From Cenococcum geophilum (lineage: Eukaryota): a stretch of DNA of 64,000 nucleotides. Of the stretch, positions 3,646 through 64,000 are shown in pieces. Location of the stretch: contig CP158635.1 in NCBI GenBank assembly GCA_050273025.1, positions 3,596,001 through 3,660,000 on the forward strand, read 5' to 3'. The notes beneath the pieces are model-generated. The model saw only the letters and a list, made by a program, of their open reading frames with translations. It searched no databases and was not told the DNA's origin. The position numbers were made by a program, and so were the translations under genes. Within the stretch, counting starts at the first letter, position 1; each line of letters opens with the position of its first letter.

Positions 3646-3657
3646 AAGGGGGGGTAC

Positions 3658-27640: not shown

Positions 27641-27677
27641 TATTGCGTATTTCCTAATCTGTACGTCTACTAATTAG

Positions 27678-39655: not shown

Positions 39656-42106
39656 CCTTTGGCCTTTTGCCTTTATCGAGTGCCGAAGTAGTTTGCTGTC
39701 CTACTTCTCTTACGTTTCGCAAAGCGATAGATATCGTGTCTAGTAGGGTCTTAATCTCTACTAATATTCCCTATTCTATAGTGGAATTATCCTCTACCTC
39801 TAGTGTAACATCTCTAATAGCTGCATATTCCTAGTAAACCGCCTTTATTACCTTATCGTTACGGAATATTTCGCCTACGTTAAATTTATTATCTTTAATA
39901 TCCGATCTACGAACTAGTTCGTTAGTTCCTTAATATTTTAATAAACTTAGCTCCTATAGCTAATAGCTTGCGCCATACTTAGCGTCCTTATAAATTTAGT
40001 ATGCGTTATTATAATAAAACGCAAAACTTTTAATTAAACACTCCTTTATTCCTCGCAGCATATTATTATTCCTCTATACGTATATATTATCTACTAGTCT
40101 TATCCCTTTTACTATATAGTAACTCTACCTACTTCTATAGTCTCTAATATAATAACCTTATTTTCCGTAATTTATATAAGCTCCCTCTTTAAACTATTTT
40201 TCTTGTTATAGAGTCCGCCTAAACGTCTTCTGCTACTAAGATCCCTAGTTTAGCCTCTACTCCTTAAACCTTTAATCACTTAATCCTTATCCTCTAGGTT
40301 TTTATAGTCGTTTACTCTATCTCTTATAGGCTTCTTTAGTACCGCTTAGGTCCATTAGCTCTGCGCTATACTATAGTTTCTAACTTAGCTTTAGTTATTA
40401 TATACTCTACGCCTTATATAACTATAGAACTCTATCTTAGCCTCTCTTAGCCTATTCCCTTTAGTAGATCTAATTATTAATCTTAATCGCTTAATCTATT
40501 AGTTCCCTTAGGGTGTTTATATCTTCTATTAGGATAATTACGTCCTAGACTTTAGCCTTAAGTCCTTACTTATACTGTGCCATAAGCGCCTTATTATTCC
40601 ACTCTACTTATATTGCCAGCGTCTGGAACTACGTTATATACTTAATTGCTAAGGTTTATTACGTAATATTTTAGAGTTTTCTTTTCGCTATGGTTACTGC
40701 CTCTAGGTCTCTAAATATTTATATAAGTTATTCCGCGAATCCTTCCTAGCTTAAGAATATAAACCGCACCTCTTAATTAGTGGTTATTATTCCGTTTACT
40801 TATATCTCCATAAGGTAAGGCTTAAACTATTTAAGTGCCTTCCCCGATAGGAATAGTCCTACATACGCTATTCGATCCATAGGTATTAGTAGCTTAGCTC
40901 CTTCTTGCGTAACCTTAAAGTATATCTATATAAGGAATCCCTTAAGCTTTAATCTTTCTCCTAAGTACCTTTCAATTAATAGTAGCTTAATCTTTACTGC
41001 TCTTATCCTATTAACCCTTTCTTCTAACGCTACATTATTAGTTATTAACTAGTTAACTATCTCCTATAGTTATCCAACCGTTACAGGTTGCTATAAGTTA
41101 GTGTCTGCTATACTAGTATTGTTACCTAACCTTAAAGTAGTTGCCGCCGTTAATGGCGTTATAGTAGCTGCTTTTAGTGGCATGTTATTTAACTTTCTAT
41201 ATTAATACCGTAACTAGGTAGTAATTGTATAACGGAACCTTATAGCAAGAACTACAATAGGCTTGTTAATGGGCTAGGTATATAGGAAATGTAAGTATAA
41301 AAGTTAATAACGTAATAATAACTGGTAGAGTGGTTGCCTAATAGATTAACTCTAATTGTATTCTAAGAATTACTACAAGGAAGGAACTATCTAGGTAGGG
41401 ACTAAGGGTCCTTAAATACACAACCGTACTCCTATAAAATCCTTTTTATATATAATATACGTCTTATACATAAGGTACGTAAGTTCCTCTTGTTTCTCTC
41501 GTTTAATACATAGCATATTATATAACCTCGGCTACTATTTCTCGTCACATAGTTCTACCGGTTCCATTTTAGACCGTGCCTAAATTAACCAACTAGCTTC
41601 TTCCAACTCTTCCCCAAGTAGTTATAACATTGTACTTAAAGCGTCCGTAACAAAAAAGTTAGTAAATTATATAGTATAGAACTATAAGATAGAGTTAGAA
41701 CTAAAAATAAGTTTAAGGTTCTTTTTAATTTATAAGCTTTACTTAAGAGGAGTTTAGAGTACTTAAAGAGTTTATTTAAAAAAACTTATAAAAGGGATAT
41801 ATTAGACTATTATAGTTATTAGTGGGATATCTAGTATTATTTGTACTAAAGAAGAATAGAAAACTTAGGCTATATATTAACTATAAATAGTTAAATAGTA
41901 TTACTTAGAAGGATAGGTATCCTTTACCCTTAATTAGCGAAATTTAGGATTAAATAGGTAATGCGTAAATCTTTATAAAGATAGATCTAAAATAGGCGTA
42001 TTATTAGATTAGAATTAAAAAAGGTAATACATAAAAAGTAGCCTTTAGGTTAAGAAAGGACTATATATACTATTAGTTATATAATTTAGATTAATAAATA
42101 CACTAG

Positions 42107-45100
42107 TATAACGAAGCCGTGTAGAAATACTACGGTAGACTTATTAATAGGCTAGGTATATAAATATAGAATAGTTAACAACGTAAATATAACTGGTAGA
42201 GTAGTTGCCTAATAGATTAACTCTAATTATATTCTAAGATTTACTATAAAGGAGAGAACTATCTAAGTAGGGATTATAGTTTTTTTTAAATATAACTATA
42301 CTCCTAAGAAATCCCCTTTATACGTAAGGTACGTATTATATATATTATATATACATTCCCTTTATACACTATGTATACTACGTATAATATTATATAACCT
42401 TAGCTACTATTCCTTATTATATAGCTCTATTAGCTCTATTCTAGACTATACCTAAATTAACGAACTAGCTTCTTCTAACTTTTCTCTTAGTAGTTATAAT
42501 ATTGTACTTAAAGCGTTCGTAATACTATCTCCCTCCTTTTTATCTTTATCCTTAAAGATTCTAAATATCTCTAAGTTATTTACTAGAGGTGTAATATCCG
42601 TTTAATTAATTTGGTTAATATTATTACTTATTATACCTAAGGCTCCTTCTTCTTTATAAGCGCGACGTCGTGCTTATACTATTACTGCGATATTATCTCT
42701 TAGTGAGATTATACTATCTCCGTATTCTCGCTATTTAAAAAAGGGGTTAGTTTACATTACGTTAACGAACCTATCTTCGTAATAACCGTCTTTTTATATA
42801 AAGTATACTAAAGCGAATATTTATTTATCCTATAACGTTTACTTTATCTCTAATACTAAATATATATAACCTATTGCTCTTAATAGTTGTCTAGTTCCTT
42901 AATTAATTTATCTTAGGGTTTTATATTTAATCTATTACTATATAGCTAGATAGTAAACTATTTTAGGCTCTTGCTAAGCTAGAATGCTCTTATAATATAG
43001 AGTAGAAGGCCCTAAAGGCTTATATTATAGTATCCGCTTAGCTACTCCGTCTTAAAAAGGTCCATTTTAAGAAGTAAAAACTTATAGAATAAGGTTTATA
43101 GGAACTTAGTAATAAAAGAACGGATTTTCTTCTAATAGGGAAGGAAATAGATTTAAGTAGTTTGGCAACTGCTCTTCTTAGGTCCCTCTTAGATAACTTA
43201 TTCTTTAGTAATCCTTTTTTATTAATACTGCCTAACCTAATCTCTTTTAATACTCCTATACCTTTCTTATAGCGTTTTTTAGATTCTTTAGTAGTTTTTA
43301 AGTAGTTTTAGTATAGCCTATCTACTTAACCTTATACTATATTTCGTTATTAATATTCTTATAATTAATGATTTTTAAAACTTACTACTTATCTTCCTTT
43401 TATTCTCTATATATATCTACCTTATAAACCAGTGGCTTAATATTTCCATATACTAGCTCTACTATTACGATATACTATATAGGGTAGATATTTATCTTGG
43501 CTAATAGGTTTAACTTAAACGTAATTAGTGAAATCTTTTATATAATTTTAAAAGGTCCTAGTCTGACGTAGTCTAACTTCTTGCTTAGTTATTAACTTTT
43601 AAAATTTTTATATAGTAGCTATACTTTATCTCCCTCCTTAAGATCTAGTCCCTTAGATCTTTTAGTATTATAGTACTTCTTTATTCTTTTTTATACCTTT
43701 TTTATTAATTTTATAAGGTCTATATAAAGATTTATTAGTATCTTTATCCTTTCTTTAGCTGTACTACTTGTTTTCTTTACTTATTATAGTCACAATAATA
43801 TTTTTGGCTTATATCTATAATTTGCCTTAAATAGTAATATACCTATTCCTTCCTGTGGTGTTACATTATATATAAACTATATAACTAGTAATAGCAATAC
43901 CTAATTATTTTATACGTGATTAATATAATGTCTTAAATACTGTTCTAGTATCTAATTTAATCTTTTTATTTAACCGTCTGTCTGCGGGTAATATACGGTA
44001 GAAGTTACTACTCTAACTCCTTACTCTGCTAAGAATACTTCTTAAAATGCTGCTATAAATCTTAAATCTCTATCCGATATAATCTTATTTAGTACTCTAT
44101 GTCTTATAAACACTTCTTTAATATAGATTTTAGCGATATCTTCTACTAAGATTTTTTCTGTATATGCTATAAAGTAGCCCTACTTAGTTAACTTATCTAC
44201 TATTACTAAGATTACGTTATAATCTTATCTAGTAATAGAATTTCTTAACTTTAGTAACTTAATAATAAAGTCCTATAATATAACCTCCTATAGTCTCTCT
44301 AGTATTTTAATAGGTTATAGCCCTTTATATAGCTTATGCCTTATTAGTTTATTCCTTTAATAATCTAGATACTTTTTTATTACTTTTTTACGATATTTTA
44401 GATTCTGTTAATAATGTATTCTTTTTAAAGTCTTAATACTAAGCCTATTGCTCTATTATGTCCCTAAGTTATTTCCTTATAGAAATCTTTTATAAAATGC
44501 TCTGCTATGCTTTTTAGGATATACTTTGCTTCCTAATTTTTGTATATATCCATCTATAGATCTTTTAGCTATTTTTTTAGAATTCTTTATACCTAAAAGC
44601 TTTTTAGTGTCTTATAGACTTTTTCTAATTTGTTATTCTTTTAAGTTGCTACTAGCTTAGGGTAATTATATCTACTCTATCTATCCTTATCTCTGTATAG
44701 CATTACTCCTAATAGTTTCTTATTATTCTATAGTTTAGCCTTTCTACTAAGTGCGTCTACCCTTATATTCTTAGTTCCTTTAGTATACTAAATTTTAAAA
44801 TAGTATTCTATAAGCATTTCTACCTATTTAACTTATCTTTAATTAAGTTCTTTTGTTATTAGAAACCCCGTTAGGTTCTTGTAATCTATCTTAACTATAA
44901 ATAGTTTCTCTGCACCTTATAAGAATACTCTTTATTCCTTAAATACTGTAACTATACTTAATAACTCCTTATTATAGACATTATAGTTTAACTCTAGTAG
45001 TATTATCTTTCTACTATAATATAATACCGGGTGCTATACATTCTTATACTTTTATAGTAAGTATACTCCTAGTATATAATCTAATATATTTGTCTCTATA

Positions 45101-48100
45101 ACCGTATCTAATCCTAGTTAATAGATTTTAAGGATTAGCTCCTAGGTAAATAGCTCTTTAAGTTCCTTAAATAACTTTCTTTATTTATCTCCCTATGCCT
45201 ATAGTTCCTTTTTCTTTATAAGCCTAGTAAATAGTTTAATGTTCTTTAACTATTGTGTTATAAACCTTCTATAGTAGTTGTAAACCCCTAAGAATAACCT
45301 TAACTATATTATATTCTTTAGTTCTTACTAACTTACTATAGCTTTAATCTTCTTTAGGTCCATATTAATATAACCTAGTTTAATAATAAATCTATTAAAA
45401 TTGGTCTTCCTTATAAAGAACTTGTATTTTTTAATTGCTACTAGTATCTATTCTTTCTATAGTCTCTTTAAGACCTATTTAATATATTCCCTATATTCTT
45501 CCTTAGTTATTAAGTAGATAATAATATTATTAAGGTATACTATAATAAACTTATTAAGGTGTTCTCCTAATACACTATTAATTCGTTTCTAAAATATTAC
45601 TAGTATATTTATTAATCCGAATTATATAACTAATAGTTTATATAGTCCTTTTCTTAATCTAAAGGCTGCCTTTTATTTGTTACCTTTCTTAATTTTAATC
45701 TAATAGTATACCTATCTTAGATCTATCTTTATAAAGATTTATACATTACTTATCCAGTCTTAGATCTTACTAATTAAGGGTAAAAGATACTTATCTTTCT
45801 AAGTAATGCTATTTAACTACCTATAGTTAATATATAATCTAAGTTTTCTATTTTTCTTTAGTATAAATAGTACTGGATAACCTACTAATAACTGTAATAG
45901 TCTAATATATCCCTTTTATAGGTTTTCTTAAATAAACTCTTTAAGTACTTTAAACTCTTCTTTAGTAAGCTTATAGGTTAGGAAGAACCTTAGACTTATT
46001 CTTAGTTCTAACTCTATTTTATAGTTTTATACTATATAATTTGCTAGCTTTTTACTCTTTGGGCTCTATAGTTTCTTATTATACTTATAGTATCTTTTTG
46101 GTATATAACTTAAGCTCCGCTTAGTCTCTTTATATATTACTTTAACTTAGTACTATACTAACTTAGTTTACTATTATATTTTACGGCGTTAAGTATTTTT
46201 AATATTAACTTAACTTGTAATCTAATTAATCCTTAGATTATATTCCTATAACTAAGGTATTTTTAATACTGCCTTATCCCGTCCTAATAGTAGAATATTA
46301 AAAGATATCTTAATTTATTTTCCTTTAATGGTTATTTAAATAGGTCCTGTTTTAAGATTAATAATCCTTCCTTCGTAGGCTATTAGATCTCCTAAAATTA
46401 TAATTAATAGGTAAAGTTGCTCCTTCTGTCTATAAGGTAACCCTATTCTCTTAACTACTACTAATAAGATATGGTTTCGCGTTACTCCACTATTTATTAG
46501 CGCTTTAAACTACTAATTTTGCTATTTAACTTATAAATTTAGGTATTGTCCTTAAATTCCTTTAAGGGTCTAAGGCTCTACTACTAGTTCCCTCTAGTTT
46601 TATAGGCCTTTACTTTTCCTAACTATTAGCTGCTTAATCCTATTACGCTTAGCTTACTTTTCGGCTAATACCTAGTTCGCTTTTTATCCTTAATATACTA
46701 TAAATATATATTCTCTAGGTATTCCCACTACTATTATCCGTCTAAGTATTCTTCTATAAGGAATCTTTTTAGTTAAAGTATTAAGTCTCCTAACTCTTAG
46801 ACTTCTATTAAATGCTATCTATATATATATTTAGCATTCCTATATTATTACTTATCTAGCGCCCAATATATCCTTATAGGGTATTTCCAATTCTTTTCTT
46901 TTAAAATTTTATATATTTTGTATATATCGTCTATATATATAATCTAAGATAGCGTATAGTATGCTAGGTGCTTTAGGTTAACTCTTAACTTATCTTTATT
47001 TTTAAGTTTAAACCTCTATTATACTAATCTAAATATTATAACTTTATTTATAAGTACTAAGATGCGTCTTTTACTCCTCTAGTCCTCTAATTATTTCTCT
47101 AGATCCTTTAATATTATAATTAAGGCTCCTTTAATATAAGTTATGGCCTTCTCTATAATTAGGTGGTCCTAAATAACTTATTTATCTAACTATATATAGA
47201 AATCTTTCTACTTATTATTATATTGTTGTCTATACCACTTTTAGTATAGCTACTAGAGTGTATATAGCCTGTCTGTAAGAAAGTATCTCCTTATTACTAC
47301 GTTATAATAGCCCTTTATATATTATTCTTTAAACCTAATAGGGATCCCTAGATCCTCTTCGTTTTTTTAGTTTAATAAGCTACTTAGCTCTTAGTATGCC
47401 TACTCTAAGCCTATTAGTAATTCTTTATATAGGTGCTCTGTCCCTTATACGTCTTAATATACTAGATCTCTTATCTAGTTTCTATTCTTACTATACGATA
47501 ATTCTTTACCTAAATTCTTTTATAGTTTCTTTTGGTTTGCGTCTTATAAATAAATCTTTAAAGTTCTCTTACTTCTTAATCGTGGTATTAACTTTTTAAT
47601 CCTTTTACTAAGCCCTACTCGTAATTTCTTTAATAGTCTTTATTCTATTGCTAAAATTTTAGTCCTATAAGATTCTTAATCCTAAGCTTACTTCTATCTT
47701 AAGCTTAGCTCTAGCCTTAGTTTAATTAGGCTTTACTAGTGTTCTTATTTCTTCTTAAGAGTCTTAAATCTTACTTATCTTATTTTAAGAATCTTATATC
47801 TTTAGAAAACTTCGTCCTAAGCTTATTCGTATATTGCTAAACTAAGCCGTTGCTCTACTCTATTAGTTATCGTCCATTATAGGTCCTTAAGCTTACCTCA
47901 TCTTATCTTAAGAATCTTAGTTATCTTTTATCTCTTTTTAAGAATCTTAAGCCTTTAGCCTTTTGCCTTTATTAAGTGCTAAAGTAGTTTACTATTTTAC
48001 TTCTCTTACGTCTTATAAAGCGATAGACATTATATCTAGTAGGGTTTTAATCCCTACTAATGTTTCCTATTTTATAGTGGAATTATCTTTTACCTCTTAT

Positions 48101-49932
48101 ATAATATCTCTAAGGTCTATATACTTCTAGTAAGCTGCCCTTATTACCTTATCGTTATAGAATATTTTACCTATATTAAACTTATTATCCTTAATATCTA
48201 ATCTATAAACTGGTTTATTAGTTCCTCTAAACTCTAATAATTTTAGCTCCTATAGCTAGTAGCTTATATTATACTTAGCATCTTTATAAATTTAGTATAT
48301 GTTATTATAACAAAACGTAAAACTTTTAATTAAATATTCTTTTATTCCTTATAGTATATTATTATCCCTCTATATATATATATTATCTACTAGTTTTATT
48401 CCTTTTACTATATAGTAGCTCTGCCCACTCTTATAGTCTTTAATATAATAACCCTATTTTCCGTAATTTATATAAGCTCCTTCTTTAAACTATTTTTTCT
48501 ATTATAGAGTCCGCCTAAACGTCTTCTGCTACTAAGATCCCTAGTTTAACCTTTGCTCCTTAGACCTTTAATTACTTAATCCTTATCCTCTAGGTTTCTA
48601 TAATTTCTTATTTTATTTCTTAGATTTTTTGGTACTACTTAGGTTTATTAGCTTTCCGCCATACCATAGTTTCTAATTTAGCTTTAGTCGTTGCGTACTT
48701 TACGCCTTATATAACTATAGAACTCTATCCTAACCTCTCTTAGCCTGTTCCCTTTAGTAGATCTAATTATTAATCTTAATTGCTTAATTTATTAGTTCCC
48801 GTAGGGTTTCCGCATCTTCTATTAGGATAATCGCGTCCTAGACCTTAGCCTTAAGTCCTTACTTATACTGTGCCATAAGCGCCTTATTATTCTACTTAAC
48901 TTACGTTGCTAACGTCTAGAACTGCGTTATATACTTAATTACTAAGGTTTATTACATAATATCTTAGAGTTTTCTTTTAGCTATAGTTACTGCCTTCAGG
49001 TCCCTAAATATTTATATAAGTTGCTCTGTAAACCCTTCCTAGCTTATAAATATAAACCGTACTTCTTAATTAGTGGTTATTATTTTATTTACTTATATTT
49101 CCATAAGGTAAGGCTTAAACTACTTAAGTGCTCTTCCTAATAGGAATAGTCCCGCATATACTATTCGATCTATAAGTATTAGCAGCTTCGCTCCCTCTTG
49201 CGTAACCTTAAAATACATTTATATAAGGAATCCTTTAAGTTTTAATCTTTCCTTTAAGTACCTTTTAATTAATAGTAACTTGATCTTTACTGCTCCTATC
49301 CCATTAATTCTATTTTCTAGCGTTATATTGTTTTCTGTTAGCTAGTTAACTATTTCTTATAGTTGTCCGACCGTTACAGGTTGCTATAAGTTAGTATTGG
49401 CTATGCTAGTGTTATTTCCTAACCCCGAAGTAGTTGCCGCCGTCAATAGCGTTATAGTGGCTGCTTTTGGTGGCATGTTGTTTAACTTCTTTTACTATAA
49501 CCTTAGTAGTAAATGTGTAACAAAGCTGTGTAGGAATACTACGGTAGACTTGTTAATGGGCTAGGTATATAGGTATAAAATAGTTAACAATGTAAATATA
49601 ATTAGTGGAGTGGTTGCCTAACAGATTAACTTTAATTATATTCTGAGATTTACTACAAAGGAAAGAACTATCTAGGTAGGGACTGTGGTCCTTTTAAATA
49701 CAACCATACTCCTAAGAAATCCCCTTTATACGTGAGGTACGTGTTGTACGTATTATACATACATTCCCTTTATACACTGCGTACACTGCGTATAACATTA
49801 TATGACCTTAGTTACTATTCCTCGTTATATAGCTCTATTGGCTCCATTTTAGACTATGCCTGGATTAACCAACTAGCTTCTTTTAACTCCTCTCCTAGTA
49901 GTCGTAATATTGTACTTAAAGCGTTCGTAACA
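42107..49932 (-). mobile_element. Full-length Gypsy/chromovirus D3 (7826 bp)
   Basis: LTRs at 42107-42524 and 49516-49932; TSD ACTAG at 42102-42106 and 49933-49937; inserted in the RT of D4. Confidence 0.95.
42633..43305 (+). pseudogene. Antisense Zn2Cys6-like spliced gene, D3 copy
   Basis: Colinear with 34079-34763, reading (M)PKAPSSL*ARRRAYTITAILSLSEIILSPYSRYLKKGLVY, with the same intron position. Confidence 0.65.
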
Positions 49933-52269
49933 ACTAGTAATGTTTTAGAAAAGAATTAATAGTATATTAGGAGAATACCTTAATAAGTTTATTATGGTAT
50001 ACCTTAATAATATTATTATCTACTTAATAACTAAGAAAGAATACAGGGAATACGTTAAATAGGTCTTAAAGAGACTATAAGAAAAATAAATACTAGTAGT
50101 AATTAAGAAATGCAAGTTCTTTATAAAGAAGACTAATTTTATTAGATTTATTATTAAATTAAGTTATATTAATATAGACCTAAAGAAAATTAAAGCTATA
50201 GTAAGTTAGTAAGAACTAAAGAATATAATATAATTAAGGTTATTTTTAGGGTTTTATAACTATTATAGAAGGTTTATAATATAATAGTTAAAGAATATTA
50301 AACCGTTTACTAAACTTATAAAGAAAAAGGAACTATAGGTATAGGGAGATAAATTAAAAAAGTTATTTAAGGAACTTAAAGAGTTATTTACCTAGGAACT
50401 AATTCTTAAGATTTACTAACTAGAACTAGACATGGTTATAAAAATAAATATATTAGACTTTATACTAGGAATATACTTATAATAAAAGTATAGGAATATA
50501 TAGCATCTAATAGTATACTATAGTTGGAGGATAATACTACTAAAGTTAAACTATAACGTCTATAATAAGGAGTTATTAGGTATAGTTATAGTATTTAAAA
50601 AATAAAAAGCATTCTTATAAGGCGTAGAAAAACTATTTATAGTTAAGATAAATTATAAGAACTTAATAGGGTTTCTAATAATAAAAAAACTTAATTATAG
50701 ATAAGTTAAATAGGTAGAGATGCTTATAGAATACTATTTTAAGATTTAGTATATTAAAGGAACTAAGAATATAAGAGTAAATATACTTACTAGAAAAGCT
50801 AAACTATGGAATAATAAGAAACTATTAGGAGTAATACTATACAGAGATAAGGATAAATAGATTAGATATAACTACCCTAAACTAATAATAACTTAAGAGG
50901 ATAATAAACTAAAAAGAGTCTATAAGATACTAGAAAGCTTTTAGGTATAAAGAATTCTAAAAGTATAACTAGAAGATTTATAGATAGATATATATATAAA
51001 TTAAGAAGTAAAGTATATCCTAAAGAGTATAGCAGAGCATTTTATAGAAGATTTCTATAAGGGAATAACTTAAGGACATAATGGAGCAATAGGCTTAGTA
51101 TTAAGACTTTAGAAAGTTTTTTTTATTTTTTTTATATCTATTATATTAGAAAGAATATATTATTAATAGAATTTAAAATATTATAAGAAAAGTAATAAAA
51201 GAATATCTAAATTGTTAAAGGAATAAACTAATAAGGTATAAGCTATATAGAGGGCTATAACCTATTAAAATACTAAAGAGACTATAGGAGGTTATATTAT
51301 AGGACTTTATTATTAAGTTACTAAAGTTAAAAGATCCCTATTACCGGATAAGAGTATAATATAATCCTTATAATAGTAAATAAGTTAACTAAATAGGGCT
51401 ACTTTATAGTATATATAGAAGAAATCTTAGCGAAGGATATTACTAGAATCTATATTAAAGAAGTGTTTATAAGATATAGAGTACTAAGTAAGATTATATT
51501 AGATAGAGATTTAAGATTTATAGTAGTATTTTAGGAGGTATTCTTAGCGGAATAAGGAGTTAGAGTAGTAACTTTTACTATATATTATCCGCAGACGGAC
51601 GGATAAATAAAAAGATTAAATTAGATACTAGAATAGTATCTAAGATATTATATTAATTATATATAAAATAATTGGGTATTATTATTACTAGTTATATAGT
51701 TTATATATAATATAATACTATAAAAAGGAATAAGTATATTACTATTTAAGGCAAATTATAGATATAAGTTAAGAATATTATTATTACTATAATAAGTAAA
51801 GAAAATAAGTAGTATAGCTAAAGAAAGAATAAAGACGTTAATAAATCTTTATATAGACCTTATAGAATTAGTAAAAAAGGTATAAAAAAGAATAAAATGG
51901 TATTATAACGCTAAGAGATCTAAAGGACTAAATCTTAAGAAAGGGGATAAAGTATAGCTACTATATAAAAACTTTAAAAGTTAATAACTAAGTAAGAAGT
52001 TAAACTATATTAAACTAAGACCTTTTAAAATTATATAGAGGATTTTACTAGTTATATTTAAATTAAACCTACTAGCTAAAATAAAGATCTACCCTATATA
52101 GTATATTACGATACTAAAGCTAGTATATAAAAATATTAAACTACTAATTTATAAAGCAGACACGTATAAAGAATAAAAAGAAGATAAATAGTAAGTTTTA
52201 AAGATTATTAGTTATAAGGACATTAACAATAAAATATAGTATAAAGTTAAGTAAATAGGCTATAATAAG

Positions 52270-52937
52270 ACTACTTAGGAGCTATTAAAAAATCTAAAGA
52301 ATGCTATAGAAAAGGTATAGGAGTATTAGAAGAGATTAGATTAGGTAATATTAATAAAGAAAAATTACTAAAAAATAAGCCACCTAAGGGGGACCTAAGA
52401 AAAGTAGTTACCGAACTACTTAAATCTATTTCCTTCTTAGTTAAAGAAAAATCTGTTTTTTTATTACTAAGTTTCTATAAACTTTATTCTATAAGTTTCT
52501 ACTCCTTAAAATAGACCTTATTATAACTCTTTTTAAGACGGAGTAACTAAGTGGATGCTATAATATAGGTATTTAAGGCTTTCTACTTTATGTTATAGAA
52601 ATGTTCTAACTTAGTAAGGGCTTAAGATAACTTATTATTAAGATAAGTAGTAGTAGATTAAATATAAGACCCTAAAATTAATTAATTAAGGGATTACATA
52701 ACTATTAAAAGTAATAAAGTGTATATATTTAGTATTAAAAGTAAAGTAAATATTTACTTTAGTGCACTTTAAGTAAGAGGACAGTTATTGCGAAGATAGA
52801 CTTAATAATGTAATATAAATTAACCCCTCTTTCGCATAATAAGAATATAAAGATAGTATAATTTTACTAAGCAATAATATTATAGCAACGGTATAAGTAT
52901 AATGTTAGGCGTATAAAAAAGAAGAAGCTTTAGGTAT
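52270..52937 (-). pseudogene. Antisense Zn2Cys6-like spliced gene, D4 copy
   Basis: Reverse-complement homologue of 34079-34763; SSYLKCTK retained; in frame through LLRLKKSYNKVYFKE*KL. Confidence 0.6.
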
Positions 52938-54992
52938 AATAAGCAACAATATTAACTAAATTAATTAGATAGATATTATACCTTTAGTAAATAACTTAGA
53001 GATATTAAAAGTCTTTAAGGATAAAGATAAAAGGGAGGGAGATAGTATTATGGACGCTTTAAGTATAATATTATAACTACCAGAAGAGGAGTTAGAAGTA
53101 GCTAGTTAGTTAATTAAGGTATAGTTTAAAATAGAGCTAATAAAACTATATAATAAGTTATTTTGTTACGCAGGAAACTACATTAGGAAATAGAGGCTTC
53201 CTTTACGGGCAAGGCGCCCTCGCTTGTTGACACCGGCCAAGCTAAGACTACCTCTCAACCTTAACTATAAAAGGCCATTTCTCTTGCTGCTTTTCCTCTT
53301 ATCCTCTATTTTTCCTTTCTCCCAACGCTGCGCCTCCTCCTCTTCTTACTACTAGTCCCTAGCATAGTCGCATTAAGGCATTTCTGCCGTCCCTTTAGCG
53401 CTAATACGTATATAAGTCCAGCCCGCTTATTACTTTATACCCCTATATCTTAAACTAATAATTAATATAGTTAACTGCGGCCTTTCTAATGGGCGAGTCT
53501 CTATTCTATAGTAATGTATAGATAGTCTTAGCCTCCTCTCCTAATTCCCGCCTCTAGAGCCGATGGCTTTAATTTTTATTAACCTCTTTTAGCGCCGCCT
53601 CTGTCCGCTAAGCGCGTCTATATCCTTATAATTCTGTCCTCTCTCTTATATATACCCTCTCTCCTTTTACCTTCTAAATAGCGCTAGTCCGCAACCGTCC
53701 TATAGGAAGGGGGTTAGGGGAATTCCGCACTTACCAGCCGCGTTAGTACTATTGTCTTATTTAACTCTACCGTATATCTCCTTCTAAGGTAGGGAGGGAT
53801 AGGCGTGCCGTATCTGCCCCCTTAAGGGCTTAAGCGAGCTTACGTCGCACTCGTTTTAGCTAACCTACGCGCTGTTTTTTTACCTATAATATACTATTAG
53901 TTAGATAACCCACTTTAGCGTTTGCCGATAGCTAAAGCCACCTATATTACAGCTAGTATGCCTACTAAGCTACCTAGCGGAAAAGCAGCTAGACGTCGCC
54001 AATTTAAGTAACTACCCCGTGCGGGGCTATATTAGGCATTATTTAAATAGATATTATATAGAGTGTCGCCTAGGTGGCCATGCATGCCTGCCTAGTAATA
54101 TAGTTGTATTACCACGGATATTTTAGAGACACCGTTTAATCTACTGGTTTAGGGCTAGGGGGCTATTAGCTCTACTTAACTGCTTAGCAGCAGAGCGGTA
54201 AAAGATTGATAATCCGGCCTTCTAAGCCATAGGGCTATAGTGGGAACCACCTAGATTAAAATTAGAAGGTTACAGCTTTTAGGCGCATAATAGATCTACG
54301 GCACTGCAGTATAACTATAAAGGAATCTCTAACACTAGCTAGCTATATTAGGAGGGTAAGTATTATATAGCACCTCGTGTAGCACTCTATACAGTCCTTT
54401 ACCTAGCGTATTTATATATCTGTATACGATTACCGTATAAGCAGTAGGCGTATCCGTTACTAGGCGGTTAGTATTAGAGAACCCCGCCTACTACTAATAA
54501 TAATACTGCCTTCTTCCGTTATAGATAGCTTATAACGCGCACGCATGAGCGGGGCTTTATATCCTATTAATACGAGCGGCATAGAAGATTAGCTGGATCG
54601 GTATTGTTAGGAAGTGAATAGATATATTAGCATTGCCCTTTACTAAGGAATAAGGGTAGAGAACTTAAGCCACTAACCTCCTAATAAGGGGCTAGATGCG
54701 ATAGCTATATTAGAGCTGAATATGCTAGCTTAGACGGGCGGATATAGTTTAATTATAATTTGCTAAGGGTGTTAATTAGGTGCTAGGAATTTAAGCCCTT
54801 GCAAATCTTTATACCCTATAAATGGCAATTAACCCCAGAGGCGCACGCATTAAATGCTTTAATTTGATAAGAAACCTAGGTAAGGGGTAAAGGGTAAGGG
54901 GCGATGGGCGAGTGCTAGCGGCGAAGGGAGGACTGACGTGCACTTAAAAAGACCTTTAATTCCCCCTTAAAGCTTTTAAAAGCTATAAAATA

Positions 54993-56998
54993 ATGGCAAC
55001 TCTAATAATAATAATGTTGGCACTACCTTAGTCTTTATTTTATATTCCTCCTAAAATTTTGCTTAATAAGAACAATTTCTATACTAGTCCCCCTAGAAAA
55101 TTAATAGCTTTATCTTAGTACTATATAATTACGGCCCCTGAGAAAAGCGTGAGCAGTAAGCCTAAAAGGAGGAGTAGGAGAGTACCTCTTTTCCCCCTAA
55201 AAAGTTAAGAAGCATTGTAAGCTTGGGCACTTAACGGCATATTATTCCACCTAGGGCCTTAATTTGGATATTCCGTCTAATAAAGCGCCTGTAGACTCTA
55301 TATATAATTATAAGAAAGCTAATAATAAGTATTATAAGGATAACGAGGATAATAAGGATGACAAGGATAACGAAGAAGATTTCTATAGGGATGGAAATGA
55401 CAGTTAAGTCTCTAGAAGAAGTAATTAAGGTAATTATCCCAGTAATTACCCTACTACTCTTCCTCTTTCCCTAGTAGTTCCAAATATATAGTTTTAATGA
55501 CTAGTAGTAAATCTAATAGTTATTAAAGACAATATAGCCGATCTAGACTTGGAAACTAAGGGCGACGAAGCTGGTAACGCTAATAATAAAGCTAACGAAG
55601 CCGATAATCGACCGATACCTTATAGATTAGGTATACGCTTCCCCCCTTAATTTATAATAGCTTATTTAATAATTAGTAGATAATAGGAATAACGGCAGTA
55701 GTAAGGGTAATAAAGATGATAAAGAGCTACCTTTATTAGAAGCGCTAGAAGAGGAGGTACGCGTACCTATATATAATTATACTATACCCTTAACGCTAGA
55801 CGGCAATTAAACGGATAATTTAGCTAAGGGGCGTCGCATTAGAACTGCTCCGCAGTTTAGGTAAAAGCTTAAAATATTAGTAGCTGCCGGTTAAGAGTCT
55901 TTAAAAGCCGAGAAGTTAAAGAAGCGGAGGTCTAATTAGCTTAATTAACTAGGTAGTATTAATTATATCTCCGATACTTCTGTTAGTAAGAGCAGCAAGA
56001 GTATACGACTTAGGAAGTAATAAAGGTTACCTGCTTTTTAGAGGACTACGCCTTCTAGCTCTCCTACCCTTAGCCTTAATAACCGTGACGGTATTAAGGA
56101 GAGAGCGGTCTCTACTACGCGGCCCACCAGCCCCTCCCCCCGGCACTGTATATCTCCTTATAATACTAGACCACTAAAATATAGGGCTAATAACCATTAT
56201 AATTATATTCTAGATAATCTTGTAAACGGCTTAACTAAAGAAAGTAATAATAAGGATGGCGAGAACGTTACGGATAAAGGTAAGGCCGGGAACTACGGTA
56301 ATAGAAGTGATAATAGTAATAATACGGATAATGACGACTCTGGGGACGGTAATAATAGTAGTAGTAATAAGGATAACGAGGCCCGCGGGTGTGTAGGGTA
56401 ATAAGGATTACTAACCCCTATTATTAGTTAATTAAAGGTAAAGTGTACTACAAAGTATTATTTCTAGCGGTCTTACTATTCCCCTTTAATTTTATCTACG
56501 TATGCGTCCGACTAAAGCACTACGCTTATTAGCAATTATTATAAGCGGGTTGCATCCCCTATATATAATTGCCTCCGTACCTAAAAACTACTACTAAGCG
56601 CTGCCTTTGGCTCCGACTCTAATAAAGTAATACTAGGAGCCGCCTTAAATGCTAATTCGGAAGAAATTTTAATTTAAGTAGCTTTTAGGCGCTAGAAAGA
56701 CGGGTCATATATACTAAATATCCTTCCTTAATAATTCCCTTTACCTTTTAACCTGGTTAAGCAGCCTTAGAAGCTAAAGCCCTAAGGGCTAAAGTCTAGA
56801 ATAAAATTTACTAAAGAGGAAGACGTGCTGTTTACTAACTTAAAAGGGAAACAAAATCTTTTATAGGACTAGATTAAAGATAGCTTTTTAATAAGAAGTC
56901 TTAGATTACTATAGGGGCATTACTATTTAAAACTAAAGGCTTAGCCTATTGTGTAGAAGAAACGGGGGCAGCCTACTAGGCGGAAGAATTGGTGGTAA
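54993..56998 (+). pseudogene. Acidic low-complexity protein with a C-terminal MYB/SANT domain and AT-hook-like motif
   Basis: 56792-56998 reads KSRIKFTKEEDVLFTNLKGKQNLL*D*IKDSFLIRSLRLL*GHYYLKLKA*PIV*KKRGQPTRRK. D/E/N-rich tracts at about 55330, 55560 and 56240-56380. Start and exon structure are uncertain. Confidence 0.75.
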
Positions 56999-57399
56999 TA
57001 GTGCTGTTCTTTTTAGCCTGAAGTTTTATTTCTAGCTTAAGTTCTATTTATAGCGCATCTTATAATTTTTAGATTAATAAAATTAGTCCCTGTGTAACCT
57101 AATGGGCCAGTAACTAGAATTTAAAAATTGCTGCTAAAGAAGCCGTGGTTTAAGGCCGGAGGCGTAATATATACCTGAAATATTAACTAACTAAGGCCCG
57201 TTTTTAGAAGCGTAAACGTTATTATTTTTATTAGGGCTACTTAAGGTATGCTTTATAAATTCAAGTATCTGGTTATTAAAGAAAGTCTATTATGGGGAAA
57301 TGAATATGCATTATATAGCTAGATTAGTACGTATATCCTATCTATTAGTATATAATTCTTAATGGCTTTAAGGACTTCTTTACACCGCCTATCCTTTTT

Positions 57400-58563
57400 A
57401 TAACCAATAAACGCGAAATTGTATCTTAGTAACTACCTATTTCTTTTAGCCTTATCTAACGCACGCGTAATAACTACCTTTGGCGATGGATACTGGACTA
57501 TCCTTATCTCCTCTTTACCCTTATTTATTCTAGTCTGCACTATAAGTATAGAATAATGCTAGCGCTTTAGAGAATTATTATGAGATCTATTTATCACTCC
57601 GTTAGGTGTAAATATTGGCCTATTTTTATCCTTAGAAATTCCTATTAGTATTTACTTGCTAGTAGGGCTATAGATTATATTAATATACTTTAGGAGTTTA
57701 GGATCATCTAATAACTAGTGGATGATCTTTATACTGTGACGTCTATATCCTAATACCGCTTTAAGCCTAAATGTTTAACAATTATTAAGATAAAGTTCCG
57801 CCGTTGTAAGAAACTTGTTAACAAAATCCTTATAGCGGTTAGTTTTCTTCTATAAGAACGTAAACTAGTTACTTATATAAACTTTTGGATACTCCCTAAC
57901 TGGTACTTCTACGGCTAAACTAAAAACGGTTGGCTAAAGGACGTAGTCCTTAACTAGTGCTACTAGAGTAAGGTAAGGTAATGTCTTGGTCTTGTTATCC
58001 TTATCTGTTAGGGATTTAAGAGATAATAATTGTGTAGGGGTTAAGGGTGCGCCTAGTTCCTCCTTAAAGTAGCCTTAAGTAAGCCTATCCTCCACTCTAG
58101 AGTATATAGAGGGGGTTTTAATATTACTAGGGTAGGTTAGGTCCTTATTAGCATTTATAGAAGAGGGAAAGGGCTAGCTTGGCGTGCTAACACTAAAAGG
58201 AGTCGCCGTCGCTCTAATACCACTAGGAGAGTTAAGCTTAGAAGGTATTAGCCTCTTATTAATACCTACTAAAGGGTAAGAAAGATAGGGCTAAACGCTC
58301 GTCATTATATCGTCCATACTAGAGTTAGTAGTAATTACCGTCTCCCTAATACTGTAAGAAAAGTTAAGCCTAATAGGTATTGGTTTCTTATTAATATCCA
58401 CTAAAGGAGGGGGACAAAGATAGGGCTAGATATTGCTCGTTATATTATTAATGTAAGAGTCTATAGTGTTCTTATTAGCCTTATCTAATAATAAGTCTCT
58501 AGTGCGTATAATTTACCTTTAGTTACTTATAGAGCTAGCAGCCTAATAGCTTAGAGTTTCCAT
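57400..58563 (-). pseudogene. Hypothetical protein with an internal 45-aa repeat
   Basis: ATG at 58563 downstream of TATATATA. Long frame with few stops. 135-bp spaced repeat: TSNI*PYLCPPPLVDINKKPIP and TSV*PYLSYPLVGINKRLIP. 3' end is approximate. Confidence 0.5.
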
Positions 58564-59299
58564 AGGAAGTTATTAATAGATTTTTGTTACTGGTTATAGA
58601 AGGGAAGTATTTATGGGAAATAGGAGTGGGGTAAACTAAGTAAATATTTATGTAAGGGAAGCACGGTAGAGCTGCTAGTACTAAGCGGCTTCCTATATAT
58701 AGGGCTACTTAAATCCTCCGCAAGCTAAAGCGCGTGGTGTGTACGCCTATAGCTAAATCAAAATACGGTAATAACTTAGAAATACTATAGACGTTTATAT
58801 ATAAAGTTTATTATTAGTTATACTTATATTTAAATACCTTATTATATCCTAAGGGAACGGCTTAGCGTTTAAATGCGATAAGGCTAAATAGAAGCAAATA
58901 GTGAGGCCTACTCCTATAGTTCTTAGAGCTTAGAGAATTGCGCTAAGATAGTTAGCCTGTGTAGGACATTCTACTCTTAATTTCGTGGTGGAGACTTAGC
59001 GACTAGAAGAGCAAATGCCCTGTATTTTTAGGTGGGTAGTAGCATTATAGGGTATAAATTTGCATAAGGCATAGCTGTGTTAATTAGGGTATAATATATT
59101 GCTAATTTTATAAGGCGAGACAGGCACTACTTATATTAGGCTTTAATTTAAGCGCCTATTTTTAATGATCTATATAGCTACACCCCTATACGTACTACCC
59201 GCCACTTATTTTTATATATTGTCTCGTATAAGATCCTATAGGAGCCCCTAAATAGGTTTATTGGTTAATTCCCCTTAGGATTCCTTATTCTCTAGAACT

Positions 59300-59720
59300 A
59301 AAATATAGCTTAGTAAAAACGTGCTAGTTATAATGTTTATATTAAAACTAACTAGTAGCACTTCTAATAGCTTTTAGTATACGCTAGCTTATAGCCTTCT
59401 AGTTTACTTTATTTAACCTATTATCTCTTAGTCTCTCATTTACGCGTTCCAAAATTTCCTCCCTTTTAGGTAAATTTACATCATTCCAGCCGTGCCCTAA
59501 GGTAATAATATTTCTATTCCTTATTTATAAATTTCTGCTAATTCTTATTAAAAAAAGGCGCCTTAGCCTAGGCCTATATACTTGCTAGGAAACGCTGCTA
59601 CTGCTCTAGGTTATACTAAACTATATCCCGCACCTGCTTTGCAGTAGTATTAGCCCTAATATCTATTATGCGTAGTGGCGTTTAGAAATGGGTATTGGTG
59701 AAATTACTAAGTCCTAATAT
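59300..59720 (-). pseudogene. Possible small helical hypothetical protein
   Basis: Protein-like readings LRIIDIRANTTAKQVRDIV*YNLEQ*QRFL and GWNDVNLPKREEILERVNERLRDNRL in two frames. No family assigned. Confidence 0.3.
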
Positions 59721-61057
59721 GTTGTGGCGAAGCGGGGTTTCGCAAATAGAGAATTTTAAGTTATTTAAGTGTCTTGGCTAACGCCACTAGCATTACCCCT
59801 ACTAGTTTGGTTTTATAAGACTGGTCCTCCCGCCTTCCCTAGGGTCGCACTAACTATTTAGCTGAACGCCGCTAGTTCTAGCAGCCGCGCTAAATATAGC
59901 CCACCTAATACTTCTACCATGTTATGGAATATGCAGAAAAACTATACAAGGTTACGATTTAGGCAGCCCCTAGCTAATACGTCGGATCTTTTTTATACTA
60001 ATAGCCCTAGGGCTACTACAAGGAGTTGAAGCGCTAGAAGCTGCCTGCTATAGCTAATCTAGTTCTCCTTGCTATATTATGGAAGCGAGAGGAATTAGGG
60101 CTAAGTTAACGATAATAGTTACATTTTCTATAGTTGTTAGAAGGATAATTTATTTCATAGATTATAAAACCTCCCTAATGCTCTGTATGAGCTAGAAAAA
60201 GAATCTGCTTATAAAGTAAAATATTATCTTTATACTATTTTCCAATACCCAAAATATAACTCTTAATGATGCATAATCTTGAAAATGGCCAATGCGAGGC
60301 CTGCGTAACTATATTATATATTAGTAAACCAATAGCTAAAATCTAGGGGGGCTTTGTATATTAAAACTAGCCCTACGGCCTTAATTACCGTCTTTGTAGT
60401 TATTGCTATTATCCTAATCACGCTTATATACTAGAAACTTATTACCTAAATAGATAATGTGTATTTAGGGCGATCCTATTAAAGCTATAATCGTAAATGC
60501 TAACTAAGAATAATAATAGCGTAATAAAGCCAGACGCGCCAGACGTTAGAATCTTTAACCAACTTTTTAGTAAGGCATATTATAAAGAAGCAAGTAATAA
60601 GTAAGCAGGAAAAGGCACTATATAGCCCTATTTTAATAATAGAAGGGTTTAAATATAATAAAATCTAAGCAGCTGCGACGAGGGTAGGGTAAGTAAATCT
60701 GCTAACGGGAGCTATAATCTTAAATATCTAAGAAAATGGAAAAGAATGAAGATAAAAGTGGGAGTAGGCTAGTTTATAATAATATTTTTTCTTAGAAATA
60801 AGGCGGGCTATATAAACGCTATATTATTACCGCTAAATAACTTAACTAAGCGGCTTCCTAATAAGTTGTTGCCCTAACCTTAGGCGATAAAAGGCACTCA
60901 AGGCGTATAGGGGTCAGTTACCTCCTCCATTCTATTACTAGATTAAGTATTTAATACCGTCTATAATTTTAGGTGATGCTAAATAAAAAAAGAGAAGAGT
61001 ATAAATCTTTTATTTTAGCTGGTAACTTATAAGTTTTCTACACCCTTATACCCTATA

Positions 61058-61895
61058 TTAATCTTTATCTCCTAGCTATACGCTTATAGTATAGAGCTAT
61101 GGTTTATAAGCACTAAAACTGTATAGATACTTTACTGGACCTTCTATTAACTTAGTCTTAATATTAAACCTAAAGTGTCTTAGAATAGGTTGGCTTGCTA
61201 GTATAGCTAACACCTATATCTTCTTTCCCTCTTTATCCTACTTTTCTACTGTTATTTTAATAAGTGTTCTGCCTAGACCAGACTTTTAATAAGACTTGTA
61301 TATAGTAAGAGTAAAAATTTTTATTTAGTAATCTTGGGAGTACCTAGCGCAAAATTAGCTACGCCCCTAAGCTTATAACCTAGGAACTATACTAATACCC
61401 CTTAGCGTAAGTTTTTTCCTTATAAAACTTAACACCATCTAGGTTTTTATCTTGACGTAGATTTTTAATACCCTCTAGAAGGCTGTTAAGAATACCTTCG
61501 TTTTATTAGCTTACAAACTTATACTAAATAAATAGTAGTACCGTATAAATGTCCCCCTTAGGTAGTAGCTAGGGTTCTAGGCCACTTATAACAAGGACGC
61601 TAGAAATTATAGTTCCGCTAATTAATACCGTTAAATCTTGCCTAGCCTATAGCGACTTAACTACCTTAGCTTTATTTTTATTATACAGGCTTTCTATACT
61701 ATAAACCCTTAAGGTGGAACTAAGAAGCGCATTAATAAGATTAACTGCGTAAAAGTCGTATGTGTCTATTAGGAATGCTTTAGAATGTAATCTCTAAATC
61801 TTAAAAGATTAGGAGGTTTTAAAAGCTAAAATAATAATATAGGTTGCCTAAAATATATCTAAGTGCGTAAGCGGTTAAATTTAATAAGTAGCCAT
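61058..61895 (-). pseudogene. GNAT-family N-acetyltransferase, RIP-inactivated
   Basis: N-terminus MATY*I*PLTHLDIF*ATYIIILAFK. Motif A TLTIYKSY*KSGLGRTLI (Q/R-x-x-G-x-G) at about 61260-61315, then KEGKKI*VLAILASQPILRHFRF. Confidence 0.7.
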
Positions 61896-62599
61896 TATAG
61901 GAGAGAGCGAAGAAAAGTAAAATTGGTAGTAGAAGGAGGAATACCCTTAAAAGGTATATAGAGAAGTTATAATATTAATTAGACGAGAGCTATTGGGACC
62001 GTCGCGGATATAATAACTATAGCCCCTGCTCCGACTAACGGAATTAGGTTCTTTAGTATTACTATTCCACCCTACCTTTAGATAGCATCTAGTAAAGGAT
62101 TCCGTACGGTAGGTATAGCTAAGAATTATTACTACACGCATTATGCTAATTTATCGTCATGCATTTTGTATCTGCTTAGTATTACCTAATACTTAACCTT
62201 TAGGAACGTATATATATAAGTCTAACGCTGCCGAATGCTATTAGATGTAAGGATAAGGTGCTAAGGTAAAAGATTTAGTTTCCTAAGCTAGATATAAATG
62301 ACTACTATTAAGGGTCTATAATGGATAGATGCGGCCTTTACTTTAAAACATTCTCTACGCCTTTTTCTTTAATATAGTTCTCTAAGCCTTAGAGATTCCC
62401 CTAAATTATAGTCTGTAATTTAATTAGAATAGATACCGTATAAGAAATATTAAACGTACTTAAAACGTATACACGTTAGAGTAGTTATACATTAATTTAA
62501 GGAAAGTGGGTAAATAGATAATATCCCGTATTTATCGCCCTTTAGTTTTTCTATAAAGAGCACTAAGGAACTTCCGTTAAGACTTAGAAAAGGAATAAA

Positions 62600-63117
62600 T
62601 TAAGGAGTAAGAGAGTTTATCTATAGTCTTCTTATCTAGGTGGATGCAGAGAATTTCACTTAATATTAAATTATTAAGTATTTAAGCGACTTGTTAGTAT
62701 TTTAGGCGGTTAGGATTTCCTAGACCCGCACCCGCTATTTATTAGTCTTTTAGGCCTGTAGTGATTTGATCCCCCGATAGGCCGGTACTAGGATATAACT
62801 TTAGGGGTTCCGTCTGCTGGCCTTATATACCCTTAAGTTGGTAAGTACTGGAACGCGAAGAAGTTTTAAGCCTAGTGGCTAATTTAGGACGACTTTCCAA
62901 TGTAATTAAAGACCCCTTTTTTAGATCTATATCGGCGTATAATAAGGCACTTACTTTTAGGCCAGGGTCGGTAATTAATACACTATAGCTTAAATCTTAA
63001 TCCTAGCTGCTAGTGATGGTTATAAGAGGCTGCCAAATATACTAGTCTAAGACTAGTAGGGTCTAGCGAATTGCGGCTTAAAAGAGCGAGCTAATTATTA
63101 AAGAAGTAGCATCTATA
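62600..63117 (-). pseudogene. Possible hypothetical gene remnant
   Basis: Stop-poor frame downstream of a pyrimidine-rich leader; no recognisable domain. Confidence 0.2.
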
Positions 63118-64000
63118 TTAAAGAATAAAGTGGCCGTAAATAGCTAGCAGAAATAGGGGAGACTAGGGAATGGTTTAAAAGGAGCGGTAAAAATAGTGAA
63201 GTTAAGGAAGTAACGAATAAAAGCTGTAGAAGAAGGCGATAAGGCAACCGGTAAAGTAGACGGTAAAGGCAATTATGCATCCCTAGCGTAATGGGGCGAA
63301 ATTAGCTTTATATATCACTTATCTCCATCCTATACCTTTAAGATTTAAAGCATTCTTAGGTTTATTAAGGCGTTTTAGCCTTTAATTCTTGCGGGACGTA
63401 TTATTACATTATTAAAAAGAAATTAACGGGAGCTTCTAGACTTTATAGTAGTGGGTAAGCTACATCTAATTAACCGGGGAGACGGCTACATATCCTTACT
63501 TTAATTAGCTATTTAGTTTTCTATTATAAATCTTTAAAGGAGTACGAGTTATAGTAGTAGAGTTTAGCATAGTATGGCATCTTAGGGGTAATAAGGTAAG
63601 GGGCTAATATACGCTAAGCTAAAATTGCAGGGGTATTATTGTTGCGATTATAATGATAATCCCCTACAACGTTTCCTACTTCTCTCACTCTTATACCCTA
63701 TTACCTTCTTTTTTTAGTTTAGTCAACCTATAGGATCATAAATGCCTCTCTGCTTTAGCAGTGTAGTAAAATAGATTTTAGCGCCACAGTAATTCTATTC
63801 CGTGGCCTTTCCCTTTTTAAGGCTAATTATTATCTACTATAGGATAGAGAAGCAGTCCTTCCTAGTGCACTGTTATAGCTCGCTCGCACTATCCGTCCTT
63901 ATTATACCGTAGGTTTACCTTCTATTACTCCTCTCCTAAGGGATACTTATAGATAATAGTTATTGTTAAATAAGATTGAGCTGTTTGCGCAATTCCTGCG

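Follow-up and report, generated by a model that had tools for sequence, protein, structure and literature searches.

A Ty3/Gypsy retrotransposon in the analysed stretch of Cenococcum geophilum DNA (64,000 nucleotides, hereafter the window) ends in a 3' LTR that breaks off early, and the block of DNA beyond the break runs on past the end of the window. This locus raises the question of what kind of DNA the block is and how it came to adjoin a broken LTR. The features discussed below are compiled in Table 1.

Table 1. Features at and around the LTR break (positions in the window)
Feature	Position	Strand	Basis or remark
Host Ty3/Gypsy element ('D' family)	29725..53157	+	Self-BLASTN map, junction sequences
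Nested same-family insertion 1	33539-41652	-	TSD AAAAA
Nested same-family insertion 2	42106-49930	-	TSD ACTAG
'D4', 3' part of host element (RNase H, integrase SH3, 3' LTR start)	49933..53157	+	
Truncated 3' LTR, first 112 bp of about 430	53046..53157	+	Self-BLASTN, MAFFT
RIP-affected block without TE domain or intact ORF, running past the window end	53158..64000	.	
GTTACGCAGG, exact inverted copy at 60300-60309	53165..53174	+	TIR lead, rejected
Orphan ORF family 2 relic, N/D/S-rich low-complexity tail	55640..56464	+	
Myb/SANT-like string, FTKEED...RS...HYYLKLK	56790..56940	+	By eye, no search support
Orphan ORF family 1 relic (about 400 aa), most ORF-like part of the block	57256..58467	-	2-5 stops per 100 codons
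132-bp tandem duplication in the N-terminal part of family 1	58206..58428	-	77%
GNAT-like string (about 59700-59950)	59654..60013	-	By eye, no search support

The Gypsy nest and the LTR break

Every part scanned to the left of 53158 belongs to a nest of LTR retrotransposons. The nest has the features of Ty3/Gypsy elements, with domains for RT, RNase H and integrase, paired LTRs and TSDs of 5 bp, and the 5' LTR of the host element, beginning at 29725, is preceded by TTAAC. In D4, three domains were found on the plus strand by Pfam, namely RT_RNaseH_2 (E 3e-10, about 50351-50629), RT_RNaseH (E 2e-8) and SH3_Tf2-1 (E 0.0081, about 51943-52116). The other nest junctions that were examined, those of the two nested elements and the host 5' end, are clean insertions with 5-bp TSDs. 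Nested LTR-retrotransposon mosaics are found in the RIP-generated AT-rich isochores of Leptosphaeria maculans. The DNA left of 53158 resembles these mosaics in its nested same-family Gypsy copies with 5-bp TSDs, all of them RIP-mutated, whereas the block is no LTR retrotransposon by any test run.

Five alignments reach the junction in a self-BLASTN of the 64-kb window, and none of them extends beyond 53157. Two are long and pair 52000-53157 with 35034-33859 (81.8% identity) and with 43576-42413 (79.8% identity). A third alignment, restricted to the LTR, pairs 53046-53157 with 29725-29836 (91%), and two weaker LTR-only alignments stop at 53153 and 53149. In a MAFFT alignment with five sister LTRs of ~420-440 bp, the D4 LTR runs parallel to the sisters through ...AACTATATAATAAG, after which D4 continues as TTATTTTGTTACGC and all five sisters as GAATAGTA/GAATGGTA/AAATAGTA. 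The break is located between 53157 and 53158, after 112 bp, and ~300 bp of the LTR are missing. A remainder hidden within the block was rejected up to position 64000: an nhmmer profile of the five LTR remainders found none in 53158-64000 (best E 0.54), and permissive BLASTN gave scattered AT-rich matches only, the best of which (E 7e-5) is a palindromic AT stretch at 58775-58847 matched by different LTR copies via different LTR positions. The block itself might seem to open with an LTR, as TGTTACG at 53164 resembles the start of the D-family LTRs. This candidate was also discarded, with only 7 nt in common, no direct repeat partner, and different starts in the other LTR families of the window.

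RIP signature and domain content of the block

RIP is a premeiotic C>T mutation of duplicated DNA. All 20 one-kb windows from 53158 to 62658 display a composite RIP index of 0.70-1.57, a TpA/ApT ratio of at least 1.47 and a (CpA+TpG)/(ApC+GpT) ratio of at most 0.77, and the same picture was obtained over the whole 64-kb window (32 of 32 two-kb bins). The GC content is 32-43% in the block versus 21-33% in the Gypsy nest. Maxima of the RIP index lie at 57.7 kb and 60.7-61.2 kb and not beside the LTR, which favours intrinsic duplication of the block over leakage from the Gypsy nest. TheRIPper, as quoted in Dauphin et al. 2026 (PMC12910237), defines a large RIP-affected region by at least seven consecutive 1-kb windows, taken at a 500-bp step, with a composite index above 0; with 20 of 20 windows positive, the block is such a region. 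It resembles the large RIP regions reported there for C. geophilum in that the index stays above 0 far beyond seven windows, the DNA is AT-enriched, and it lies in a nest dominated by Ty3 elements.

No real family, TE domains included, was found in the block by six-frame Pfam searches with X at stops (E<=1). The same method recovered RVT_1, RT_RNaseH, RT_RNaseH_2 and SH3_Tf2-1 from 44158-53157 (GC 21-29%), and RVT_1, RNase H, Integrase_H2C2 and SH3_Tf2-1 from 1-10542; RT and RNase H domains are recovered even in neighbours mutated more heavily than the block. The longest stop-to-stop ORF in the block has 119 aa. The hallmarks of an LTR retrotransposon are absent from it, all direct repeats being of 91 bp or less and no pol domain being present. 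The first-pass annotation had described an LTR similarity ending after about 112 bp, on which self-BLASTN and MAFFT agree, followed by more than 10 kb that lack TE domains and are RIP-damaged throughout, and all of this is borne out. A single chance-level Rfam match (E 0.24) was obtained in 52000-64000, and no tRNA was found in the 64-kb window. Searching PDB sequences by phmmer with two of the six block frames and two motif pieces gave only matches of E 0.74 and E 1.4, both unrelated. When bacterial and archaeal genomes were screened for fungal contigs present as contaminants, the single match, of 23 residues in an actinobacterium, was spurious.

Orphan ORF relics

At least two stretches of the block are dead copies of orphan ORFs with many diverged copies elsewhere. 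Family 1 has three matches among 6111 candidates, with 55-64% identity and E values from 3.7e-114 to 3.9e-86. A wider search of 1.84 billion representatives gave 16 matches, two of them spurious and the other 14 being fragments of 36-192 aa with 52-78% identity. Family 2 has 20 matches among 545 candidates (60-86% identity), one of which, with 81-86% identity, is annotated as 'hypothetical protein [Cenococcum geophilum]'. When mapped on the window, eight distinct family 1 relatives overlap at 57450-57460 and at least 14 distinct public family 2 relatives (tblastn) at 56150-56383; these relatives were counted in public protein sets and may come from several strains or species.

The window copy of family 1 differs from the relative P0001 at 109 of 310 aligned positions. 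C>T/G>A change in the window copy explains 83 of these mismatches and the same change in P0001 explains 10, while 16 fit neither direction. Eight of the ten stops in the window copy align with Q or W of P0001. Judging from this alignment, the window copy derives by mutation from a relative that is better preserved, its stops falling at Q or W positions of that relative. In the 14 other relatives tested, transitions in one copy or the other account for 81-98% of the mismatches. Nearly all differences between copies are G:C>A:T transitions. The tandem duplication of family 1 also occurs in the relatives P0008, P0010, P0015 and P0016; being common to several relatives, it is older than the copies. 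A RIP-mutated repeat family was recognised in 55640-56464 and 57256-58467 only.

No Pfam family passed the cut-off in P0001-P0003, the nearest being a sub-threshold PRE_C2HC match in P0003 (E 0.006, 17.1 bits versus a cut-off of 22.1 bits). The ESM Atlas gave no usable match for P0001, either whole or as residues 140-315. An AlphaFold2 model of family 1 built on a 17-sequence alignment was too poor to use (pLDDT 37.9, pTM 0.25). Host-like genes, among them MYB/SANT and GNAT genes, had previously been assigned to the block; what it contains instead are orphan ORF relics without a Pfam family. In the Myb/SANT-like string, TAG stops appear by eye at the places expected for W or Q. However, neither string is upheld as a gene: Pfam at E<=10 detected no Myb, SANT or acetyltransferase family in 11 frame-consistent pieces and three short pieces around both strings, phmmer found no Myb/SANT or GNAT match in PDB sequences, and no ORF of the block exceeds 119 aa.

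Nature of the block

The region 53158-64000 is probably RIP-inactivated, unclassified repetitive DNA, consisting of one large unit or a mosaic, which adjoins a Ty3/Gypsy element with the 3' LTR cut at base 112. An ancestral element would have multiplied in the genome of a Cenococcum-like Dothideomycete, and RIP may then have struck each copy independently, bringing the GC content to 32-43% and destroying every reading frame. Since RIP implies duplication, the block is expected to be multi-copy. It had been described as such before, and this holds for the two ORF segments, about 2.0 of the 10.8 kb (19%), while for the other 81% or so the multi-copy state is read from the RIP signature alone. 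The Myb-like region, 56426-57025, matched none of 182 short-protein candidates in one frame, and thus the repeat unit may not extend over the whole block. The block yielded no transposase, TIR, LTR or other sign of mobility, and a segmentally amplified non-mobile region would look alike.

Origin of the junction and alternative explanations

Two origins can be envisaged for the junction. The repeat, or a larger nest containing it, may have inserted into the LTR, and the other ~300 bp would then lie beyond 64000. Alternatively, a deletion or an ectopic recombination between repeats might have removed the LTR remainder. We lean slightly to insertion rather than deletion, because the rest of the window is composed of clean nested insertions with 5-bp TSDs. 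That the junction is a scar of deletion or ectopic recombination, with the LTR remainder and its flank lost and the block being the next surviving repeat DNA, is possible, though less likely. For 10.8 kb no LTR remainder follows the break, no recognisable TSD or terminal structure is present at 53158, and repeat-dense regions are prone to such rearrangements; against this stand the other examined junctions of the nest, two nested elements and the host 5' end, all clean 5-bp TSD insertions. A deletion scar concerns the origin of the junction only and is compatible with repeat DNA on its right.

The first-pass annotation had proposed a candidate end of a Starship-like element. According to that proposal, a multi-copy giant element inserted in the LTR and the block is its distal end, away from the captain, with an inward-facing MYB/SANT gene near the edge and the tyrosine-recombinase captain beyond 64000; we consider this very doubtful. 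The likeness consists of a large non-retroelement block interrupting other sequence with a clean LTR cut, more than 10.8 kb without TE domains, parts that are multi-copy, and an inward-facing Myb-like string on the plus strand, some 3.6 kb inside the edge. An optional trait of Starships is a MYB/SANT gene at the far edge from the captain, running in the opposite sense; it is reported for 23% of the non-redundant Starship-like regions, with MYB only in an additional 9% (O'Donnell et al. 2025, PMC12256816). However, neither Pfam at E<=10, applied also to a piece of 70 aa, nor the PDB sequence search with two frames and the motif pieces detected a Myb/SANT domain in the block. Six-frame Pfam searches found no DUF3435, DUF3723, patatin-like, ferric reductase or NLR domain in the block, and no DUF3435 captain in 53158-64000, 44158-53157 or 1-10542, although the proposal places the captain beyond 64000. 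The block also differs from Starships in the absence of Pfam-recognisable cargo and of a significant TIR or direct repeat, the inverted repeat at its boundary being at chance level; a single putative end falls within the window. Starships are usually low-copy, and the real ORF relics of the block are orphans whose diverged copies number 8 to 14 or more, which makes them look more like an ordinary repeat family. Moreover, with 78% TE, 73% of the genome RIP-affected and about 18% of the TEs unclassified in C. geophilum (Dauphin et al. 2026, PMC12910237), a domain-free RIP stretch of more than 10 kb is unexceptional and calls for no Starship or other special element. The Starship identity receives no positive support within the window: no captain was found in the three stretches scanned, and no accessory gene or significant TIR in the block, though a captain may lie beyond 64000.

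Just as doubtful is a reading in which the Cenococcum lineage once had a large mobile element of the cargo type, Starship-like or of unknown class, that reached many copies before RIP killed it and of which the block is an edge. The convergent orphan ORFs, one of them with a decayed SANT/Myb-like motif at its end, would then be conserved edge genes and not junk. Were the Starship-like reading correct, it would mean that giant elements can attain high copy number in an ectomycorrhizal fungus and be shut down by RIP as a whole.

It is still less probable that the block consists of host genes present once in the genome and mutated by RIP that spread from neighbouring repeats, like genes in AT-rich isochores. 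Leaky RIP is documented, 20.6% of the C. geophilum genes lie in or adjoin RIP-affected regions (PMC12910237), and the higher GC content of the block relative to the Gypsy nest is in keeping with this reading. However, each of the two ORF relics has numerous diverged relatives that are RIP variants, the indices show no decay from the Gypsy boundary and reach their maxima mid-block, and neither an ORF longer than 119 aa nor a recognisable Pfam family survives. In Neurospora, RIP leakage extends roughly 4 kb, and the far side of the block is over 10 kb away from the repeat on its left.

Hardly credible at all is a 7.2-kb PIF/Harbinger-like DNA transposon at 53158-60316, in which TTA would be the target duplication (3-bp TWA in this group), TTTTGTTACGCAGG / CCTGCGTAACTATA the 14-bp TIRs, and the Myb-like string an accessory ORF. 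It would account for an exact 10-bp inverted repeat that begins 7 nt inside the boundary and for TTA immediately outside both arms (53158-53174 and 60300-60316, 12 of 14 positions matching), and Harbinger elements are known to couple a Myb/SANT gene with a transposase (PMC12256816). Yet an exact inverted 10-mer or longer from the first 20 nt arises in 18% of 500 Markov shuffles, the TTA-flanked arms are likewise at chance level, and the TIR candidate was rejected on these grounds. Pfam found no DDE_Tnp_4, Plant_tran or other transposase domain in the block or in the well-preserved P0001, the LTR remainder does not follow 60316, and TTA is missing from the LTR where it breaks, contradicting a simple insertion.

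Significance of the locus

As found, the block of RIP-inactivated repetitive DNA matters little, adding a further junction of RIP-degraded repeats to a type of genome in which most of the DNA looks alike. It resembles the unclassified TEs of C. geophilum (PMC12910237) in having repeat ORFs without a classifiable domain, and that species has one annotated relative of them. A repeat family without a recognisable transposase is defined by the two convergent orphan ORFs and is a candidate for classification by TE curators. At least one dead repeat ORF of this kind carries a gene annotation in a public genome.

Gypsy nest and truncated LTR

The 64-kb window is AT-rich (GC 21-41% in 1-kb bins) and bears a strong RIP signature (premeiotic C>T mutation of duplicated DNA) along its whole length, with TpA/ApT of 1.46-2.05 and (CpA+TpG)/(ApC+GpT) of 0.14-0.82 in 32 of 32 two-kb bins. 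From 29725 to 53157 the DNA belongs to a single Ty3/Gypsy element carrying two inserts of its own family. For the block to its right, which runs off the window end, the best explanation is unclassified repeat DNA, present in many copies and killed by RIP, that adjoins a truncated LTR.

The 3' LTR of D4, the 3' part of the host Gypsy, was aligned with five sister LTRs, each about 420-440 bp long. It tracks them as far as ...AACTATATAATAAG, beyond which all similarity is lost. The missing part of about 300 bp was not found in the block up to 64000, where an nhmmer profile gave a best E of 0.54 and BLASTN only scattered AT-rich noise. The stop of LTR similarity described in the first-pass annotation is exact.

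Other LTR elements are present further left. The Gypsy pair in 1-10542 is inverted, shows about 65% mutual DNA identity, and has RVT_1, RNase H and integrase Pfam matches in both copies. The internal regions of the two remaining elements are only about 64% alike.

Coordinates of features in the window
Feature	Position	Strand	Remarks
Ty3/Gypsy copy	~890-3370	+	
Ty3/Gypsy copy	~5500-8100	-	
LTR element	10657-20101		LTR pair 266 bp at 92%
LTR element	21503-27847		LTR pair 166 bp at 93%
Host Ty3/Gypsy	29725-53157	+	self-BLASTN and junction reading
Same-family insert	33539-41652	opposite to host	perfect 5-bp TSD AAAAA
Middle piece of host	41653-42108		456 bp, between its two inserts
Same-family insert	42106-49930	opposite to host	perfect 5-bp TSD ACTAG
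D4	49933-53157	+	RNase H and integrase SH3 domain
Truncated 3' LTR	53046-53157	+	
Block	53158-64000		
Low-complexity tracts	55322-55373, 56243-56384		imperfect 9-, 18-, 27-nt repeats, inside family 2 relics
Family 2 relic	55640-56464	+	
Tandem repeat	56569-56646		39 nt x 2.0
Myb/SANT-like string	~56790-56940	+	visible by eye only
Family 1 relic	57256-58467	-	
GNAT-like string	~59700-59950	-	visible by eye only
Stop-poor stretch	60359-60808	-	2 stops/100 codons; hydrophobic, membrane-like translation; no Pfam match
Tandem repeat	62337-62390		27 nt x 2.0

RIP and domain content of the block

The block has a GC content of 32-43%, above that of the Gypsy nest, and the composite RIP index is positive in 20 of 20 one-kb windows from 53158 (0.70-1.57), in agreement with the damage throughout that had been noted before. 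The indices are highest in the middle of the block, at 57.7 kb and 60.7-61.2 kb, and not next to the Gypsy nest, which counts against simple leakage from it.

No real Pfam family was detected in the block by six-frame translation with X at stops (E<=1); the sole entry was a sub-threshold, low-complexity match to an N/D-rich tract. The same method proved valid on worse material: it recovered RVT_1, RNase H and SH3_Tf2-1 from 44158-53157 (GC 21-29%), and two Gypsy elements in 1-10542. Among the parts of the window scanned in this way, only the block thus lacks retroelement domains; 10543-44157 was covered by the self-BLASTN repeat map instead. The block also contains no stop-to-stop ORF longer than 119 aa and no tRNAs, and Rfam yielded only one chance match.

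Orphan ORF relics and their relatives

In a stop-density map, the minus strand stood out at about 57060-58470. Its X-read translation (family 1) found three strong relatives among 6111 candidates, with E of 3.7e-114 to 3.9e-86 and 55-64% identity, and none of the three contains a Pfam family. The best preserved, P0001, matched 16 proteins among 1.84 billion representatives. Of these, 14 are fragments (36-192 aa, 52-78% identity), and the other two, a bacterial hydrolase and a repeat protein, are spurious. All family 1 relatives map to the relic and nowhere else in the window. Structure prediction for this family was too poor for use.

For family 2, the query 55559-56308(+) gave 20 short relatives out of 545 candidates, mapping to 55673-56464, and 14 distinct ones overlap a single 230-bp stretch. 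One is annotated as 'hypothetical protein [Cenococcum geophilum]'. The low-complexity tracts encode N/D/S/K-rich sequence that also occurs in public family 2 relatives, and are thus ancestral.

In a codon-level comparison with P0001, 83 of 109 mismatches are the outcome expected of C>T/G>A in the window copy, 10 run in the opposite direction and 16 fit neither; eight of ten window stops lie opposite Q or W. For the 14 other relatives tested, transitions in one copy or the other account for 81-98% of mismatches. Such a pattern is the hallmark of RIP acting independently on the copies of a repeat family. The multiple copies deduced earlier from RIP are supported over about 19% of the block's length and plausible for the rest. 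The ORF relics are many-copy orphans, not host-like genes.

Starship interpretation

The first-pass annotation regarded the block as the distal end of a Starship-like element with MYB/SANT and GNAT genes. Its literature basis is real, since MYB/SANT genes are reported at the Starship edge opposite the captain, a DUF3435 tyrosine recombinase, in PMC12256816. Neither gene gained support here: Pfam at E<=10 gave no Myb, SANT or acetyltransferase family in 11 frame-consistent block pieces or in three short pieces around the two strings, and phmmer against PDB sequences gave no relevant match for two of the six frames of the block or for the two motif pieces. The stretch between families 1 and 2, with the Myb-like string, had no relative among short proteins (0 of 182 candidates). 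Stops were kept as X and not read as residues, which costs sensitivity at tryptophan positions, so the Myb resemblance stays a lead and not a finding.

Positive evidence for a Starship is nil. The block holds neither accessory genes nor recognisable cargo, no captain was detected in 1-10542, 44158-53157 or the block, and the inverted repeat at the block edge was equalled in 18% of shuffles. No paper on Starships in Cenococcum was found in the literature searched; among the matches listed, those containing both words mention 'Starship' only one to three times.

The Cenococcum geophilum genome is reported, in PMC12910237, as 78% TE and 73.4% RIP-affected, and in this likely background a block of such type is the norm. 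P0020, a relative of 56042-56398, is a repeat ORF of 127 aa, degraded by RIP, that a public C. geophilum genome lists as a hypothetical protein; the gene counts of that genome thus include dead repeat ORFs.
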